Positions 230-29,159 of a stretch of DNA of 30,951 bases are shown in pieces. Made by a program: the position numbers and the translations under genes. The notes under the pieces are model-generated. The model searched no databases and was not told the DNA's origin. It worked only from the letters and a program-made list of their open reading frames with translations. Numbering within the stretch: the stretch's first letter is position 1; each line of letters begins with the position of its first letter. This DNA comes from a virus (lineage: Duplodnaviria; Caudoviricetes). The DNA lies in IMG/VR virus record IMGVR_UViG_3300025637_000005, positions 1 to 30,951 of that record; one strand, written 5' to 3'.

Positions 230-1552
230 TTAATTAAATGCGGATTTCTTCGCGTATGTTTTGATGATTTCTTGTTCTGGTACTTCACCAACGTAATTGC
301 TGAACCTTTGCAATGCTAGATTGTCTTTCAAGAATGCGGTTCCAGTTCTGCCATGCCTGTTTTTTCTTACTATCAACTCAGTGATTCCAGCGCGGGCGCT
401 GTGCTGTTCATACACTTCATCACGGTAAATGAATGTTACACTGTCAGCATCTTGTTCAATGCTCCCACTGTCGCGCAGATCAGCAATCAATGGGCGTTTA
501 TCATCACGCCTTTCACAATCCCTATTCAGCTGGCAAAGCAAAACAACAGGGCAATTGATGTCTTTGGCTAGGGCTTTCAATGCTGCTGTGATGTTGCCCA
601 TTTCTTCATTCTTCGATCTTGCACTACGATCTTTAATCAATCCAAGATAATCAATGACAACAAGATCAAGGCTTTGTTTCCTGTGGGCGGCCCTGACCTT
701 AGACTTTATTTCGTTTATTGATTGCCCTGCTGTGTCATCAACCAAGATAGGGCTTGCCAATTTTTTGAGATTAGAACACATAGCATTGAGCTTGTCCAAA
801 TCATCACCATTCAAGTTGCCGTTTCTCAAGTGAGTGTGATTGATGCCAGCTTTAATTGAAGTGTATCTGTCAAACACTTCGCTTTTTGTCATTTCTAAGC
901 TCATGAATAAGCAGCGTGAACCTGCATGACTTGCCCTTATTGCTATATTCAAAGCCAAGGCTGTTTTGCCCATTGCAGGGCGGGCAGCTATAACGATCAA
1001 GTTCCCCGGGTTCAACCCACCAAGCATATTGTCAAAGTCAGTGAAGCCAGTTTGAATCCCTTGAATGCCTTGGTTTTCTATCCTGTGAAGAATCTGGTTC
1101 ACTGAATCCTGTAGAAAGTCAGTCATGTTTTCAACAGATTTGGATGCCCCAACAGTGAACCCAGTGATGGCTTTTTCAGCCTGATCAGCGGCTTGTTCAA
1201 TAGTCAGCTTTTCATTCAATGCAATTTCAACCAACTGATTTGATACTGTCAGCAATTGGGTTTTCTTATTCTCTCGCATCAGAGCCTTGCAATAATCCTT
1301 AATCAGACCAACGCTAAATTCAGACTCATACACATCACGCACATCAGCAAAGCTGGCCCTTGACCCTTGGCGTATTAGTTCATCAACAATGGTGGCAATA
1401 TCACAATGCCCACGGCGTTCAACTATGGCTTCAATGGCAATGAATATGTCAGAGTGAATTCTGTTGCTGAAGTCACTGGCAGTCACGCCAAAGCCTGACA
1501 CAATATAAAAGTTTTGGGTTGCTGACTTTAAAACACAAAGGTCAATAATCAT
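230..1552 (-). CDS. dnaB: replicative DNA helicase, DnaB family
   Basis: Walker A AARPAMGKT, SLEM, VIDYLGL, LCQLNR, DLRDSGSIEQDAD, KNRHG motifs. Confidence 0.96.
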   Translation of the reverse strand: MIIDLCVLKSATQNFYIVSGFGVTASDFSNRIHSDIFIAIEAIVERRGHCDIATIVDELIRQGSRASFADVRDVYESEFSVGLIKDYCKALMRENKKTQLLTVSNQLVEIALNEKLTIEQAADQAEKAITGFTVGASKSVENMTDFLQDSVNQILHRIENQGIQGIQTGFTDFDNMLGGLNPGNLIVIAARPAMGKTALALNIAIRASHAGSRCLFMSLEMTKSEVFDRYTSIKAGINHTHLRNGNLNGDDLDKLNAMCSNLKKLASPILVDDTAGQSINEIKSKVRAAHRKQSLDLVVIDYLGLIKDRSARSKNEEMGNITAALKALAKDINCPVVLLCQLNRDCERRDDKRPLIADLRDSGSIEQDADSVTFIYRDEVYEQHSARAGITELIVRKNRHGRTGTAFLKDNLALQRFSNYVGEVPEQEIIKTYAKKSAFN

Positions 1553-2052: not shown

Positions 2053-2847
2053 TCAAACCTGTTCTGTCAATGTTAGCCAAGCTTTAGCGGCTGTTTGTGG
2101 AACTACTCCATTTCCAAGCAATTGAAGTCTGTCAGACCTGTTGGAATACCCATCAACTGTTCGACCCAATCGGGGCTGTGTTCTTGGCCGCTCCCAATGG
2201 TACTGCTGTTGGTCTGGTCTGGATGGGAATCCGGGTACAAGTTCTTCATTATGTTTGGCAAACTGTCTGATGGGTTGCCCTTTTTCCTTTGTGCTTCTGC
2301 TCCCCGGGGGCCTTTGATGTCGCTGACTGTTGGTGTTGGCCATGATAAAGACCCGCTTTCTTTGGTGTGGTGCGCCAACTTCACGCGCTGAGAATATGCC
2401 CCACGCTGTTCTAAAACCATCTTCTGCCAAATCACTGATGACTGTGGAGAGTCCAAGCGAAATGTGGCCTTCGACGTTTTCAAAAAAGCATCTGTTTGGC
2501 TTGATGGCTTGGATATGTTTTCTGATATATGGCCAAAGGTGCCGTTCATCTTCAGCGCCTTTTCTTTTTCCAGCCTGGGAAAAGGGTTGGCAAGGGTATC
2601 CGCCAGTGATAAGGTCAACTTTTCCTGAAAAGATTTCTGATGGGAAGGTTTTAAGATCCGTCCAAATAGGGGCGGGATCCAACTTACCTGATTCCATTTT
2701 CTCAACCAAATTCGCAATGGCGAAGGCTTCGATTTCCACATAAGCGATGACTCGATGCTTGATTCCAGCAATATCAAGTCCCCTTTCGATTCCACCATAT
2801 CCGCTGCAAAAGCTGATGACAGTTGGAAGTTCTTTGGTAGTACCCAC
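2053..2847 (-). CDS. DNA cytosine-5 methyltransferase, alpha-like polypeptide (motifs I-VIII and X)
   Basis: FCSGYGG (I), GGYPCQPFS (IV, catalytic PC), ENVEG (VI), PHQRKRVF (VIII), RLQLLGNGVVP (X); GTG start at 2847 behind RBS AGGGGA; no motif IX in this frame. Confidence 0.9.
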   Translation of the reverse strand: MGTTKELPTVISFCSGYGGIERGLDIAGIKHRVIAYVEIEAFAIANLVEKMESGKLDPAPIWTDLKTFPSEIFSGKVDLITGGYPCQPFSQAGKRKGAEDERHLWPYIRKHIQAIKPNRCFFENVEGHISLGLSTVISDLAEDGFRTAWGIFSAREVGAPHQRKRVFIMANTNSQRHQRPPGSRSTKEKGQPIRQFAKHNEELVPGFPSRPDQQQYHWERPRTQPRLGRTVDGYSNRSDRLQLLGNGVVPQTAAKAWLTLTEQV

Positions 2848-2849
2848 AT
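2103..2849 (-). CDS. overlapping out-of-frame methyltransferase beta-like polypeptide (motif IX)
   Basis: 248 codons open in an alternative frame of the MTase gene; ATG with good RBS; SWPTPTVSDIKG and SPDWVEQLMGIPTGLT (motif IX-like). Confidence 0.8.
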   Translation of the reverse strand: MWVLPKNFQLSSAFAADMVESKGDLILLESSIESSLMWKSKPSPLRIWLRKWNQVSWIPPLFGRILKPSHQKSFQEKLTLSLADTLANPFPRLEKEKALKMNGTFGHISENISKPSSQTDAFLKTSKATFRLDSPQSSVIWQKMVLEQRGAYSQRVKLAHHTKESGSLSWPTPTVSDIKGPRGAEAQRKKGNPSDSLPNIMKNLYPDSHPDQTNSSTIGSGQEHSPDWVEQLMGIPTGLTDFNCLEME

Positions 2850-2863
2850 TTTGTTCCCCTGTA

Positions 2864-3577
2864 TTATGTTGTTTGTTGTACATGATCAAGCAGTTTATCC
2901 AGCTTGTTCTGATTGCATATATAGTCAAAAGTGACCTTCCAGCCGCGATCATTTTTGCCAAGATAGAATTCATTCTCTCTCAGGTGGATTATCATTGCTT
3001 CCCAAACTAGGCGATCATTCAACGCTTTATCTTCATTTATCCTTGCCGATAGGCTTGCACCTCTTTTGCCTCTTAACACTCTTTCAACGTCAACCTTGGG
3101 CACTGGGGTTGATTCAAAGTGAAAGTTCCAAGCCTTGGCAATGTCTTTGATCAACAGCTTATATTTGATCTTATTATTAGTATTATTATTAGTATTATTA
3201 GGATCTCGTGTGAGAGAGGGTTCACCTCTCGTGTGAGAGAGGGGTAAACTCTCGTGTGGGAGATCTTCATTTTGCGTGTTGATCCTTGCCTTATTCGCCA
3301 GCTCATACTGGCAACGTGTTCCAATCTGGCCAGCACTTTTAACAATGTATTTTTTTTCCATTAACAAGCCTGTAATGGTTGAAATGTTTTGTGTCCCCTT
3401 GATACCTGTATATAAACACAGTTGTGTGGCAGATGGCCAAGCCTTATAACCGTTTGATGGGTTTGCAAAGGCAATCAAAACACCAAGCACTTTAAGTTCA
3501 CGCAAGGTCAAAGATTGATCGGCCCAGATTTCCAAGGGGATCATTGAGAAACAACCAGTGATTACTTTTTTTTCCAT
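2864..3577 (-). CDS. phage replication initiator (lambda O-like organisation, N-terminal wHTH)
   Basis: N-terminal KVLGVLIAFA...AWPSATQLCLYTG HTH; central low-complexity linker encoded by iterons; C-terminal GKNDRGWKVTFDYI motif; upstream of dnaB. Confidence 0.85.
   Translation of the reverse strand: MEKKVITGCFSMIPLEIWADQSLTLRELKVLGVLIAFANPSNGYKAWPSATQLCLYTGIKGTQNISTITGLLMEKKYIVKSAGQIGTRCQYELANKARINTQNEDLPHESLPLSHTRGEPSLTRDPNNTNNNTNNKIKYKLLIKDIAKAWNFHFESTPVPKVDVERVLRGKRGASLSARINEDKALNDRLVWEAMIIHLRENEFYLGKNDRGWKVTFDYICNQNKLDKLLDHVQQTT
3171..3263. repeat. putative replication origin: three iterons plus AT-rich tract
   Basis: TCTCGTGTGAGAGAGGG at 3204 and 3227, TCTCGTGTGGGAGA at 3250 (23-bp period); TTATTATTAGTA tandem repeats at 3171-3201. 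Confidence 0.8.
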
Positions 3578-12104: not shown

Positions 12105-13274
12105 ATGAGTAAAGAAATTGAAGCCTTATCAGGCGAAATCACAAGCTTCATTGCAAAAACCAATGAAGAAGTTGCAGCGCACGGCAAGATCGGTGCAAAG
12201 AATTCTGAAAGCCTAAAAGCTTTAGAAGGTAAAATTGAAGAAGTGAATGCTTCTTTGTTGAAAGCTGAACAAGTTTCTGCATCAAGCCGCGAAGCAGCGA
12301 TTGAAGCAGCTCATGCACGTTCATCTTTAGGCGCTCAGGTTGTCAATTCTGAAGGCTTCAAAGCTTACCAGAATGGCGGCAAGTCAACTTTCATTGACGT
12401 TCAAGGCAATACAATTGTTTCTGCCCCTGCTGACAACAGTGATTTAACTTCTGCTGAAGTTGCTTCACAGCGTTTACCGGGTGCTTATGGTGCTGACTTT
12501 GTACGTTATGGCATCTTAGATTCAATCACTACTGGTTCAACTGCAAGCAACTTGGTTGAATACGCACAAGAAACTACTTCAACAAATGGCGCTGATGCTG
12601 TTGCTGAAGCGAATGCATTACCTGCATCTGCACTTGAATTCACTTTAAAGCAAGCACCAGTTCAGTTGATTGGTACTTTCTTGAAAGTCTCAAAACAGAC
12701 TCGTGATGACGCACCAGCAATGATGTCTTTCATTGATAACCGTCTTTCTTACTTTGTTCGTCGTAAGTTAGAAAACGAAGTGATCAATGGTTCTGGTACT
12801 AGCCCAAGCCTTTCAGGTATTTTACAGGCTGGCAACTACACAGCACAGACTTTCACTGCTGCAACAAATGATGATTACCTTGGCCGTTTACGTGTAATGT
12901 TGACTACGCTTCAGCAGTCTGGTTATGAAGCTTCAGCGTTCTACATGAACCCTGCTGACATTCAGCGAATTGATTTGCAAACTGACCAAACTGGTATCTT
13001 TATCGGTTCTGATCCGCGAGCGTTCAACTTGCCTGTTGCTTGGGGTGTTCCAATCATCGCTTCAAACCTAGTACCTGCAAACACTGCAATTGCTGGCGAT
13101 TGGGCAACTGCTTCAACTTTATTCATGCGCGACAACACAACTGTTGAAATGTTTGAACAAGATGAAGCTAACGTGCAAAGCAACCTTGTCACTATCCGTG
13201 CACAGGTTCGCGGCGCTTATGCTACATTCGCACCTTCTGCGGTTGTTGCTGGCGACATCGTTACTGACGTTTAA
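12105..13274 (+). CDS. major capsid protein, HK97 fold
   Basis: N-terminal coiled-coil delta domain; VSKQTRDDA, INGSG, MNPAD, WGVPII, AGDW, NLVTIRAQVR. Confidence 0.95.
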   Translation: MSKEIEALSGEITSFIAKTNEEVAAHGKIGAKNSESLKALEGKIEEVNASLLKAEQVSASSREAAIEAAHARSSLGAQVVNSEGFKAYQNGGKSTFIDVQGNTIVSAPADNSDLTSAEVASQRLPGAYGADFVRYGILDSITTGSTASNLVEYAQETTSTNGADAVAEANALPASALEFTLKQAPVQLIGTFLKVSKQTRDDAPAMMSFIDNRLSYFVRRKLENEVINGSGTSPSLSGILQAGNYTAQTFTAATNDDYLGRLRVMLTTLQQSGYEASAFYMNPADIQRIDLQTDQTGIFIGSDPRAFNLPVAWGVPIIASNLVPANTAIAGDWATASTLFMRDNTTVEMFEQDEANVQSNLVTIRAQVRGAYATFAPSAVVAGDIVTDV

Positions 13275-13285
13275 TTGTCAGACTT

Positions 13286-13319
13286 GGCTGGGGGGCATAT
13301 TGTCCCCTAGTCTTTTTTT
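13286..13319 (+). terminator. intrinsic terminator after the capsid gene
   Basis: GGCTGGGGGGCA-TAT-TGTCCCCTAGTC stem followed by T7. Confidence 0.8.
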
Positions 13320-13335
13320 ATTAATAGGGCTGCTG

Positions 13336-13968
13336 ATGAAATACAAGAATCAAATCAAAAGAAAGTTGACGGTTGCACCAACTGCATCAGTGATGACGGT
13401 TGCTGAAGCCAAGGCAAGACTTGCCATTGAAACAACTGAAGATGATGCTTTGATTCAAGTTATGATCAACAGCGCTGAAGATTTTTGTCAACAATACACG
13501 GGCCGATTCTTTATAGAACAAACGGCTGAATATTCGCTTGATGAATTGCAAATTGACTTAAAGTATTTAGAAATTCCAAGCCACTCAGCAACAAGCATCA
13601 CATTAATCACATATACAGATTCAAGTGATTTGCTTATCACTGCAAGCTTGAATGATTTCTTTATTGATTATGAGGGGATGCCTTTACGTGTTGCACCTGT
13701 TAACACATGGCCAACAATAAGACAGAAAGGTTTTAACAATATGACCTTCACAGTTGTTGAAGGCTTTGGCGCTACATCTGCCAGTGTTCCTGATGCAATC
13801 ATCAACGCTGTGGCTTTGCTTGTTGGGCATCAATACAAGAACAGGGAATCTGTTGTGGTGGGTACAATCGCGTCAACCTTGCCAATGGGAGTCACTGAAT
13901 TCTTGGACAAGTACAGGGTTGTTTACCGCAATGATTATGGGTATCAGGTTGCAGGTGTTAGCCAATGA
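13336..13968 (+). CDS. head-tail connector (gp6-like adaptor)
   Basis: TVAEAKARL, DDALI, VPDAIINAVALLVGHQYKNRE. Confidence 0.88.
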   Translation: MKYKNQIKRKLTVAPTASVMTVAEAKARLAIETTEDDALIQVMINSAEDFCQQYTGRFFIEQTAEYSLDELQIDLKYLEIPSHSATSITLITYTDSSDLLITASLNDFFIDYEGMPLRVAPVNTWPTIRQKGFNNMTFTVVEGFGATSASVPDAIINAVALLVGHQYKNRESVVVGTIASTLPMGVTEFLDKYRVVYRNDYGYQVAGVSQ

Positions 13969-27179: not shown

Positions 27180-27395
27180 CTAATAAGGACAAGTCAAAGC
27201 CCATTCATCTTCAATGATTGCGCGTATATGTTCACGCACCAGCTTACCCAGTTGAGCGTTATCATTTGATGTCAGCGCTTCTAGCATTTGTTCAAAGGCT
27301 TCTGAATCAGATTCAATGGCATAGGCCACACCATCACCAATTGCATCAGCTAAGGTTTCACGATCATTAACGAAATCAAGATAATTCATTTTCAT
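27180..27395 (-). CDS. acidic hypothetical protein
   Basis: 71 aa; ATGA coupling to the MTase stop. Confidence 0.65.
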   Translation of the reverse strand: MKMNYLDFVNDRETLADAIGDGVAYAIESDSEAFEQMLEALTSNDNAQLGKLVREHIRAIIEDEWALTCPY

Positions 27396-28129
27396 ACCAC
27401 TTTTTTAATTTGTTGTTTAAGGGTTTCTTCTGATTGTTTTATTCTCTCACTAGCTATATTAAAATATTCTTCATCAAGTTCAATGCCTATGAAGTTGCGC
27501 CCAGTATTGACGCAAGCCACACCAGTTGAACCTGAACCCATAGTGAAATCCAAAATTGTTTGATTCTCGTTTGTATAGGTTTTGATTAAGTATTCCATAA
27601 GAGCCACTGGCTTTTGGGTTGGGTGAAAGCTACCACGATCACGATTAAATTTTTGCACAGTTTTGGGGTATCGCTTGCCAGTATTAACTGTGACAACATT
27701 TTCTGACTTATTATAAAGCTGCGAATCGCTTCCTTTTTTTACAGTATATGGTTTACCTTTTGTGAATTGTGGATTGTATGTTGGTTGCTTTTTATAAAAA
27801 ACAAGGACAGATTCGGCATCTCGCAGAGGTTGCTTTTTCGCGTTTAACATGCCTGTTCCTGCTTCTTTCTGCCAAACCCAATCATATTTAAATTGTTTTA
27901 AATTAGAGCAAACTAAAACACTTGTGAATGGTTGGGCGGCTGTCAAAACAATAGCCCCATCAGGCTTAATAATTCTTTTCAATTCATGCCACATGTTATC
28001 TATTGAGATAACCGAATCCCATTTACATCGAGTAGTGCCATACGGCGGATCTGTCAATATCATATCAACACTACCATCAGGTATTTCTTTCATGCGTTCA
28101 AGGCAATCACCTTGCATCAAATTAATCAT
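27392..28129 (-). CDS. DNA N6-adenine/N4-cytosine methyltransferase, beta class
   Basis: TDPPYG precedes HPTQKPVAL and DFTMGSGSTG; no adjacent restriction enzyme gene recognised. Confidence 0.93.
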   Translation of the reverse strand: MINLMQGDCLERMKEIPDGSVDMILTDPPYGTTRCKWDSVISIDNMWHELKRIIKPDGAIVLTAAQPFTSVLVCSNLKQFKYDWVWQKEAGTGMLNAKKQPLRDAESVLVFYKKQPTYNPQFTKGKPYTVKKGSDSQLYNKSENVVTVNTGKRYPKTVQKFNRDRGSFHPTQKPVALMEYLIKTYTNENQTILDFTMGSGSTGVACVNTGRNFIGIELDEEYFNIASERIKQSEETLKQQIKKVV

Positions 28130-28316
28130 AGATTTTACCCGGGCGCGAATCATTCACTACCTTGGGGTTCCTGCTTAGATAGTCAGTCAGCCAAGGGCCA
28201 CCATCAATCCCGACAGTTGAATACTCAGATGAATTGATACCTTTACGCTTTAGCCAATGCCTGTCGCGGCGGTTCAATGTCATGTTGCCTTTCTGGTTTA
28301 GTTTTGTTTTCTTCAT
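28122..28316 (-). CDS. basic hypothetical protein
   Basis: Abuts the upstream stop (TAA-ATG) and overlaps the MTase start. Confidence 0.5.
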   Translation of the reverse strand: MKKTKLNQKGNMTLNRRDRHWLKRKGINSSEYSTVGIDGGPWLTDYLSRNPKVVNDSRPGKIYD

Positions 28317-29159
28317 TTAGTCCCCACAAAAACAAGATATTGATTGATCATTACCAAAATCAAAACCTTGTTGGTCAGTTGCAATAATTTTTAATTCTTC
28401 ATAGCCAAGTTCTAGCCTATTGAAATAATCACCCTGTTTTTTTTCTTCTCTTAACCACCAATCAGCAAGTTCTGGCTTCTGCTGAATGATTGATAATCTT
28501 TTTGATTTACCTTTAAGGAAGCAAAGATCACAATTGCCCCAATCAGTTACCCCATTATTATTGGGTAGCTGCAAATCGAATGCTTGTTTTTTCCAAAATT
28601 CGCCAATATCTTCTTTTGATATATTATCATGATAGAGAGGAAGCATTTTTTCTGAACCATCAGAAACAACACCTAGCATCTTCATTGCCCTTCTTTGTTC
28701 ATCAGCTCTAATTCCAATCATGGCTTGATAGGGTGAAGCAAAACCTTCAGATTTTAAAAACCTGTGAATGGTTCTGATTTTCATTTGCCCAGAGCACATC
28801 CGGTTCATTGGGTTTGGCAACTGGCCAACATCATTAATCAACTTGGAAAAAGGTTCGCCATTCCTGCTTGCAGTTTTATGGTCAACTTCCTTCCAGAAAT
28901 AGTTATAATTTTTTGAATCTTGCTTTTTTATTCTGCCATCATATTCTAGCCAATGAATTTTTACGCCCCAATTTGCAGAACAGTCACGCACAAAATCAAG
29001 CGTGTGGGGCATTTCTTTTCCAGTATTAGCAAAGCAGACTTTGACATAATCAGGAAGCTTGCCATCATGCGCTTCAAGTGTTTTGAACAACATGAAAGCT
29101 GAAGTTCTGCCACCTGAAAAGCTTATCAAAGTTGGTTCATCACAAAAATAATAATTCAT
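28317..29159 (-). CDS. NinC-like / PAPS-reductase-family PP-loop protein
   Basis: SFSGGRTS, FANTGKE, IGIRADE, WKKQAFDLQL, GNCDLCFLK, terminal CFCGD. Confidence 0.85.
   Translation of the reverse strand: MNYYFCDEPTLISFSGGRTSAFMLFKTLEAHDGKLPDYVKVCFANTGKEMPHTLDFVRDCSANWGVKIHWLEYDGRIKKQDSKNYNYFWKEVDHKTASRNGEPFSKLINDVGQLPNPMNRMCSGQMKIRTIHRFLKSEGFASPYQAMIGIRADEQRRAMKMLGVVSDGSEKMLPLYHDNISKEDIGEFWKKQAFDLQLPNNNGVTDWGNCDLCFLKGKSKRLSIIQQKPELADWWLREEKKQGDYFNRLELGYEELKIIATDQQGFDFGNDQSISCFCGD

Follow-up and report, generated by a model that had tools for sequence, protein, structure and literature searches.

The window analyzed here, the whole stretch of 30,951 nt, is a complete virus record that bears a terminal repeat of 127 nt, occurs in marine metagenomes and contains terminase, portal, capsid and tail genes. 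On its minus strand, two reading frames lie almost entirely on top of each other. The alpha frame runs from a GTG at 2847 to a stop at 2053 (2053..2847, 264 codons), and the beta frame, +1 relative to alpha, runs from an ATG at 2849 to a stop at 2103 (2103..2849, 248 codons), with the two starts 2 bases apart and an overlap of 745 nt. The initial annotation had described about 745 bp open in both frames from ATG 2849 and GTG 2847, and the same coordinates and codon numbers were obtained when they were re-derived. The alpha chain carries a catalytic cytosine-5 methyltransferase (C5-MTase) domain with motifs I–VIII, a low-confidence spacer and motif X; it matches PF00145 over residues 9–217 (E 8e-34), and its motifs read FCSGYGG, GYPC, ENV, QRKRVF and LGNGVVP. 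Motifs I (FxGxG), IV (PC), VI (ENV), VIII and X, together with a Rossmann-type fold, are the DNA C5-MTase features of this chain. Motif IV with the catalytic Pro-Cys is located at 2578..2601, a stretch at which beta is unconstrained, and motif X at 2098..2118, where it is predicted to pack on motif IX of beta. No IX-like LMGxP was found in the 264-aa GTG frame, in line with the earlier reading of this frame as one with motifs I–VIII plus X, without IX. The beta chain contains an overprinted N-terminus of ~165 aa, one WxTP module, which by sequence comparison is a likely target-recognition unit (2244..2342), and motif IX (2130..2180), which has His-Ser in the present copy and Leu-Asn in the family. 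The WPTP and the IX-like motif previously noticed in the ATG frame were both recovered, as WPTP at residues 170–173 and LMGIP, and beta matches phrog_1008 'DNA methyltransferase' (E 8e-17). The motifs of both chains are named by the usual C5-MTase scheme. The alpha frame stays open upstream to an ATG at 2973, inside the replication gene, so a gene caller would choose the 306-aa ORF; we infer GTG 2847 as the alpha start from the relatives.

When alpha was recoded synonymously, the +1 frame came out free of stops in only 2 of 20,000 cases, with a mean of 8.0 stops. All 12 other window genes compared have 11–39 stops in their +1 frames, the longest open run being 101 codons, and the single-chain C5-MTases used as controls have 22–28 stops (4/4). 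These controls are four small-plasmid MTases, first taken as EcoHK31I candidates and rejected as such, all of them being single-chain.

Around the gene lie DnaB, a replication initiator and two 77-aa ORFs that match no family. The lambda-O-like replication initiator lies directly upstream (2864..3577, minus strand; phrog_345, E 3e-9), and the DnaB helicase gene lies downstream on the same strand (230..1552, minus strand; PF03796, E 5e-86). No restriction endonuclease match was obtained with 43 ORFs searched against Pfam and 27 against PHROGs, and the locus does not qualify as a type II restriction-modification system. Judged from its gene content, the methyltransferase is a phage orphan without a detected cognate endonuclease, which agrees with its proposed description as a phage orphan version with near-total overlap and nested starts. 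Elsewhere in the window, an N6/N4-type DNA methylase (27392–28153, minus strand) stands beside a PAPS-reductase-family gene (28317–29159, minus strand), a pair that suggests an additional DNA modification. The window is also depleted in GGCC (O/E 0.56), CCGA/TCGG, CATG and CCGG, and has a CG dinucleotide O/E of 0.67; the depletion of GGCC, CCGA and CCGG is no pointer to the target of the enzyme. A head-tail adaptor ORF (13090–13968, plus strand) overlaps the end of the capsid gene by ~185 nt, and its start is probably over-extended, since the family match begins at about residue 90.

Two overlapping frames might also result from an assembly artefact or a pseudogene, in which compensating indels have split a single-chain gene. 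Single-base frameshifts do occur in a few loci (L090 and L124), and the X8 contig of a relative contains a pair of indels 3 nt apart, near 2574–2577. However, a contig from an independent run (X5) covers 2089–3100 with 0 differences and 0 gaps, the pieces of X6 tile the gene gap-free, and the layout is shared by 73 of 80 viral loci (best 80 of 590 confirmed stretches, 50–80% identity), so we regard this explanation as close to impossible. Indels were seen only in single contigs of relatives, and the motif-IX region is identical across runs of 2014, 2017 and 2024 and two further IMG/VR contigs. With the independent contigs free of compensating indels, the split frames stand. Three RNA runs and one DNA run gave, on this locus, only short low-depth pieces or conserved parts of relatives. 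The broken copies L090:1447-2268 and L124:628-1629, in which single-base frameshifts join the frames, are either errors or natural pseudogenes, as are L080 with its lost starts and L076 with its early beta stop.

In each of the 73 loci beta is open through motif IX, with LMGxP kept, and motif X is on alpha. Four further loci of the same 80 end at contig ends with both frames open, and the remaining three are L076, L080 and L071. The beta of L076 has a stop after the first module, L080 (L080:1481) has ATGTA with both starts lost, and L071 carries motif X on beta. ATGTG is kept in 78 of these 80 loci (best 80 of 590), with GTGTG in one and ATGTA in one. Among the viral relatives, an M.AquI-like split, in which alpha reaches no further than motif VIII and beta extends through IX towards X, is seen in L071:1460-2620, L089:1486-2413 and L088:975-1878; Camerico shows it as well, the L089 contig ends before X, and L071 and L089 retain the nested start. 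Four two-frame methyltransferase copies with differing WxTP sets (L097, L099, L100 and L103) were observed on one contig of a Dehalococcoidia MAG.

A long +1 frame of 161–460 codons with an IX-like motif was present in all eight cultured phages examined, which were chosen from the best of 1,573 records matching alpha. The cultured homologues (Lily LILY_62/63, Lc-Nu ORF40, Che9d gp80, C72C1, C75C1, yong1 and SOVA965) have xPTP and an IX-like end in the +1 frame, as here, but unlike the window none of them has ATGTG, and on this comparison of sequences the nested start is clade-specific. The GenBank record of Lily annotates the second frame as 'g62 internal gene' (L082:992-1756, next after an adenine methyltransferase) and is alone among the cultured homologues in listing both nested frames; the SOVA965 record lists beta alone. 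The expectation that standard gene callers would lose one frame describes the usual annotation, with the Lily record as the case in which it does not hold.

The beta profile matched 30,875 cluster representatives at E ≤ 0.001 and 1,483 at 1e-30. Among the best 150 beta representatives, 128 start with Met-Trp, 24 carry motif X and none carries motif IV. The betas of P0003–P0007 are 478–538 aa long, have extended arrays of modules and end in motif X, and four of the five start with Met-Leu, not Met-Trp. No single-chain fused form was found in five longer matches or in the best 150 representatives. L124 was considered as a fused single chain and rejected, as it has a single-base frameshift and alpha goes on in another frame. 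A single polypeptide could still be made by programmed ribosomal frameshifting, and a switch from alpha to beta and back to alpha would restore the canonical motif order. Such a route, which would require two shifts and would leave the selection on beta residues 1–165 unexplained, is very improbable: conservation of an X XXY YYZ slippery heptamer was not observed (the best occurs in 13 of 64 sequences), and motif IV is missing from the best 150 betas, as stated above.

The selection on both frames was assessed with 58 sequences, obtained by thinning the 64 intact distinct ones at 95% identity, and entropy was taken at alpha four-fold sites where a beta stop cannot arise. These sites were near-frozen at alpha codons 16–80 (0.60 bits, 16 sites), 126–172 (0.66 bits, 7 sites) and 215–242 (0.12 bits, 3 sites), whereas codons 81–125 (1.31 bits, 12 sites) and 243–262 (1.65 bits, 6 sites; a region that overlaps the beta tail in part) were freer. 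The difference between constrained and free regions has a P of 3e-4, which is indicative, as the regions were picked post hoc and the sequences are related. Synonymous variation is thus suppressed under the overprinted arm of beta, and the frozen wobble sites of alpha indicate that the N-terminus of beta is selected as a protein, beyond mere avoidance of stops. At the level of the compared sequences, this shows purifying selection on both chains. The ~165-aa N-terminus of beta, proposed earlier as an overprinted sequence, is accordingly found under selection, and it is also predicted to bind alpha.

The AF2 model of alpha has a confident core, with residues 183–240 at pLDDT < 50, and its Foldseek matches are M.HhaI, M.HaeIII and DNMT2 (E ~1e-12). 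Beta modelled alone reached a pLDDT of 55 and a pTM of 0.22; its model gave no Foldseek match at E ≤ 0.001, with only unnamed viral clusters returned from the ESM Atlas, and its profile gave no sequence match in the PDB below E 0.2. When co-folded, the two chains pair in the model with a score of 0.89, against 0.59 for the best of three controls; 116 of 157 solved pairs and 2 of 215 mismatched ones attained that mark. The contact agreement between runs was at least 74%, and the partner pLDDT at least 72. The predicted contacts place beta 229–235 on alpha 240–251, that is, IX on X, and beta 2–5 on alpha 60–63. The co-fold supports an association of alpha and beta, though the pass, including the IX/X contact, can stem from a resemblance to solved C5-MTases of the single-chain kind.

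The copy in the window differs from its relatives at this predicted interface. At 13 conserved beta columns it departs from the family, more often than any other sequence (rank 58 of 58); Leu224His and Asn225Ser are among these departures, and alpha has the change Arg242Gln. The close relative L112 retains the family residues at 224, 225 and 242. A His at the position of beta 224 was found in none of the 126 IX-bearing representatives. These changes raise the rather unlikely possibility that the family is truly two-chain and the window copy has been weakened, or is in decay, where motifs IX and X meet. The frames are intact, however, with every catalytic motif present, and for five of the 13 departures the nearest full-length relative, L001, also deviates at the column concerned; a sixth belongs to a module column that aligns poorly. 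The constancy of the motif-IX region across the runs and contigs named above also speaks against decay, as does the clustering of the changes on one predicted interface, where mutual compensation would be possible in the model. A loss of four codons from motif IX of the window was considered and rejected, as L112 has the same length with Leu-Asn.

WxT[PA] occurs in 56 of the 58 betas and in none of the 58 alphas. The 102 modules comprise 34 types, and differing module sets occur with alpha cores that are 97–98% alike; relatives have one to four modules or more, and the window copy has one. The spacer between VIII and X of alpha is 65–199 codons long, depending on the sequence, with neither frame interrupted, and between L112 and the window all four differences at beta 180–204 are silent in beta and alter alpha. 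The main need of this spacer may be to stay open and so deliver motif X. It seems more than filler, since an element of the FPSRP..Q..WE.PR type (alpha 207–221; 2185..2229, minus strand) is conserved in a subgroup and is a predicted contact of beta. Since nothing of alpha follows motif VIII in L071, L089 and Camerico, a target-recognition domain (TRD) could sit there on beta only. We infer that the WxTP modules serve in target recognition, as the tandem TRDs do in Bacillus phage enzymes, a role that rests on their position and modularity, given that the beta profile has no PDB sequence match. Beta is thus likely more than a donor of motif IX and would carry target recognition.

The nested starts ATGTG, beta ATG followed by alpha GTG, are located at 2845..2849 (minus strand), and the G-rich Shine-Dalgarno-like site AGGGGA, shared by both, at 2855..2860, just past the stop of the replication initiator. 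The AGGGGA named in the initial annotation was thus found in its place, at 2860–2855, but as an imperfect Shine-Dalgarno: no exact 4-nt match exists, and the wobble registers give a DtoStart of 13 as the best, followed by 11 and 12. For 33 of 71 distinct sequences, no ATG, GTG or TTG other than this GTG precedes motif I. The mean DtoStart of the family is 13.4 versus 14.4 at neighbouring genes (P 6e-4), from 56 distinct upstream regions of related sequences and 54 mechanically picked neighbouring-gene starts; with the exact-match method the values are 13.6 versus 14.5 (P 1e-3), with 14 of the 56 lacking a match. The commonest spacing is 13/15 (20.5 of 54), and 12/14 is next (16 of 54). According to the available part of PMC9841429, both codons of an E. 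coli AUGUG start at a DtoStart of 12/14, GUG only at 11/13, and AUG mostly or only from 13/15 (asnB reporters). The neighbouring-gene starts suggest a host optimum ~1 nt longer than that of E. coli. By this analogy, the spacing of the family fits tuning for dual use, especially with a host optimum ~1 nt above that of E. coli, and lends indirect support only to the earlier idea that competing starts could set the subunit stoichiometry. Against such tuning count the mode at 13, the imperfect site of the window, the fact that a Met-Trp start suffices to give ATGTG, and the separate starts of more distant homologues. No RNA structure signal was detected at the start (z −0.13).

Both chains might be made without any ratio-setting by ATGTG, which would then reflect a Met-Trp start of beta and a nearby alpha start, with output governed by, for example, coupling to the upstream gene. 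Trp2 of beta is invariant (52/52) and predicted to pack on alpha 60–63, and ATG-TGG includes GTG, so Met-Trp by itself yields ATGTG. Separate starts serve in C75C1, with two ATGs 7 nt apart, and in other phages, which start beta 20–80 codons within alpha; an upstream ORF ends ≤2 nt from the ATG in 16 of 70 sequences. Against this by-product stand the shift of the Shine-Dalgarno by ~1 nt towards the dual window, the retention of nesting as GTGTG in L079 and L089, and the frequent lack of another start for alpha. We consider this account of the start doubtful, though a real possibility.

Among known systems, the closest likeness is to M.EcoHK31I of E. coli (YGGCCR), which the available parts of PMC2836561 and PMC3404938 describe as an alpha/beta C5-methyltransferase with its TRD placed in alpha. 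As in M.EcoHK31I, alpha has motifs I–VIII plus X, without IX, and a beta ending in IX is encoded in the +1 frame of the alpha gene. An EcoHK31I-like gene, located by the published primer, was present in 81 of 5,426 E. coli genomes, and one such locus (L109) has an alpha of 309 aa and a beta of 176 aa in the same +1 phase, with an endonuclease alongside. Its alpha scores 74 bits on the alpha profile of the window family and its beta 24 bits on the beta profile; 500 shuffles reached 7.2 at most on the latter, and the four single-chain +1 frames stayed below 0; the likeness of beta follows in part from that of alpha. The beta of M.EcoHK31I starts at alpha codon 103 with an ATG of its own and lacks a WxTP module, and a restriction endonuclease adjoins the gene, whereas in the window beta starts 2 nt before alpha and contains one module. 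On these sequence comparisons, complete overlap, shuffled WxTP modules on beta and nested starts are the differences. The same phase and the weakly homologous beta make the window a variant of the M.EcoHK31I type, and not a plain member, as a TRD on alpha with only IX on beta does not describe it: the alpha spacer is variable, it is absent in L071 and L089, and the modules are on beta only. The suggestion of an M.EcoHK31I-type two-chain enzyme has support in the conservation of both frames, the selection on beta, the co-fold and this locus comparison.

M.AquI, in the available part of PMC3404938, has two chains, one with I–VIII and one with the distal variable region and IX–X. Motif X on beta is likewise found in L071, Camerico and 24 of the best 150 representatives, but the window keeps X on alpha and in this feature differs from M.AquI; that part of the source does not describe an overprinted N-terminal arm, such as beta of the window has. 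Bacillus phages such as SPR and H2 have C5-MTases that PMC8936443 describes as multispecific enzymes with tandem TRDs, each from one coding sequence. Set beside them by description only, the present enzymes are also phage orphans whose variable region holds exchangeable units in tandem, although here the units, with their putative role, are on a second chain in a second frame. The AUGUG/GUGUG starts of E. coli pqiA and tamA are also 2 nt apart, with Shine-Dalgarno spacing governing the choice there, but their second frames give 10–15 aa peptides of unknown use (PMC9841429, in its available part), unlike the two conserved ~250-aa proteins predicted to bind each other in the window. In a literature search largely confined to freely accessible papers, no paper on this phage family or its ATGTG start was found, nor was a two-frame description found in the available parts of papers on Paracoccus and Sinorhizobium phages (PMC3925955, PMC5537653 and PMC6536676).

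Overall, we consider it probable that a stretch of the phage replication module is read in two frames into two chains of one orphan DNA cytosine-5 methyltransferase, with ribosomes choosing between ATG and GTG. Ribosomes behind one Shine-Dalgarno site would likely choose the ATG or the GTG of ATGTG, and the spacing of that site may set the alpha:beta ratio, which is the weakest step. Alpha is predicted to supply the SAM-binding and catalytic domain together with motif X, and beta, poorly ordered alone, to fold onto it, with residues 2–5 at alpha 60–63 and IX on X. The WxTP modules would act as shuffled, stacked target-recognition units, as in the multispecific Bacillus phage enzymes, and with one module only the enzyme of the window would be monospecific. 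Methylation of new phage DNA might then shield it against host restriction. For the fuller proposal, in which a single AUGUG site tuned by Shine-Dalgarno spacing splits ribosomes between fully overlapping frames and so gives both subunits, with the 165-residue arm completing the fold and exchangeable modules recognizing DNA, we judge the chances to be evenly balanced.

To our knowledge, long dual-coding regions with two functional products are rare in prokaryotic systems. As annotation usually keeps one frame, cloning of the annotated frame alone would falsely read 'inactive'. The beta starts at alpha codon 103, ~60, ~25, 2 and −1 in relatives form a series for the growth of the overprinted arm. 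Whether the products of AUGUG dual starts function is left open in PMC9841429, and this clade makes the question testable via a methylation readout. If the proposal is true, it would represent natural ambiguous initiation serving two functional proteins, in a phage family of programmable methyltransferases that is very large and for the most part unannotated; if the WxTP modules set specificity, they would form a large natural collection of recognition units, carried by a chain that can be separated.
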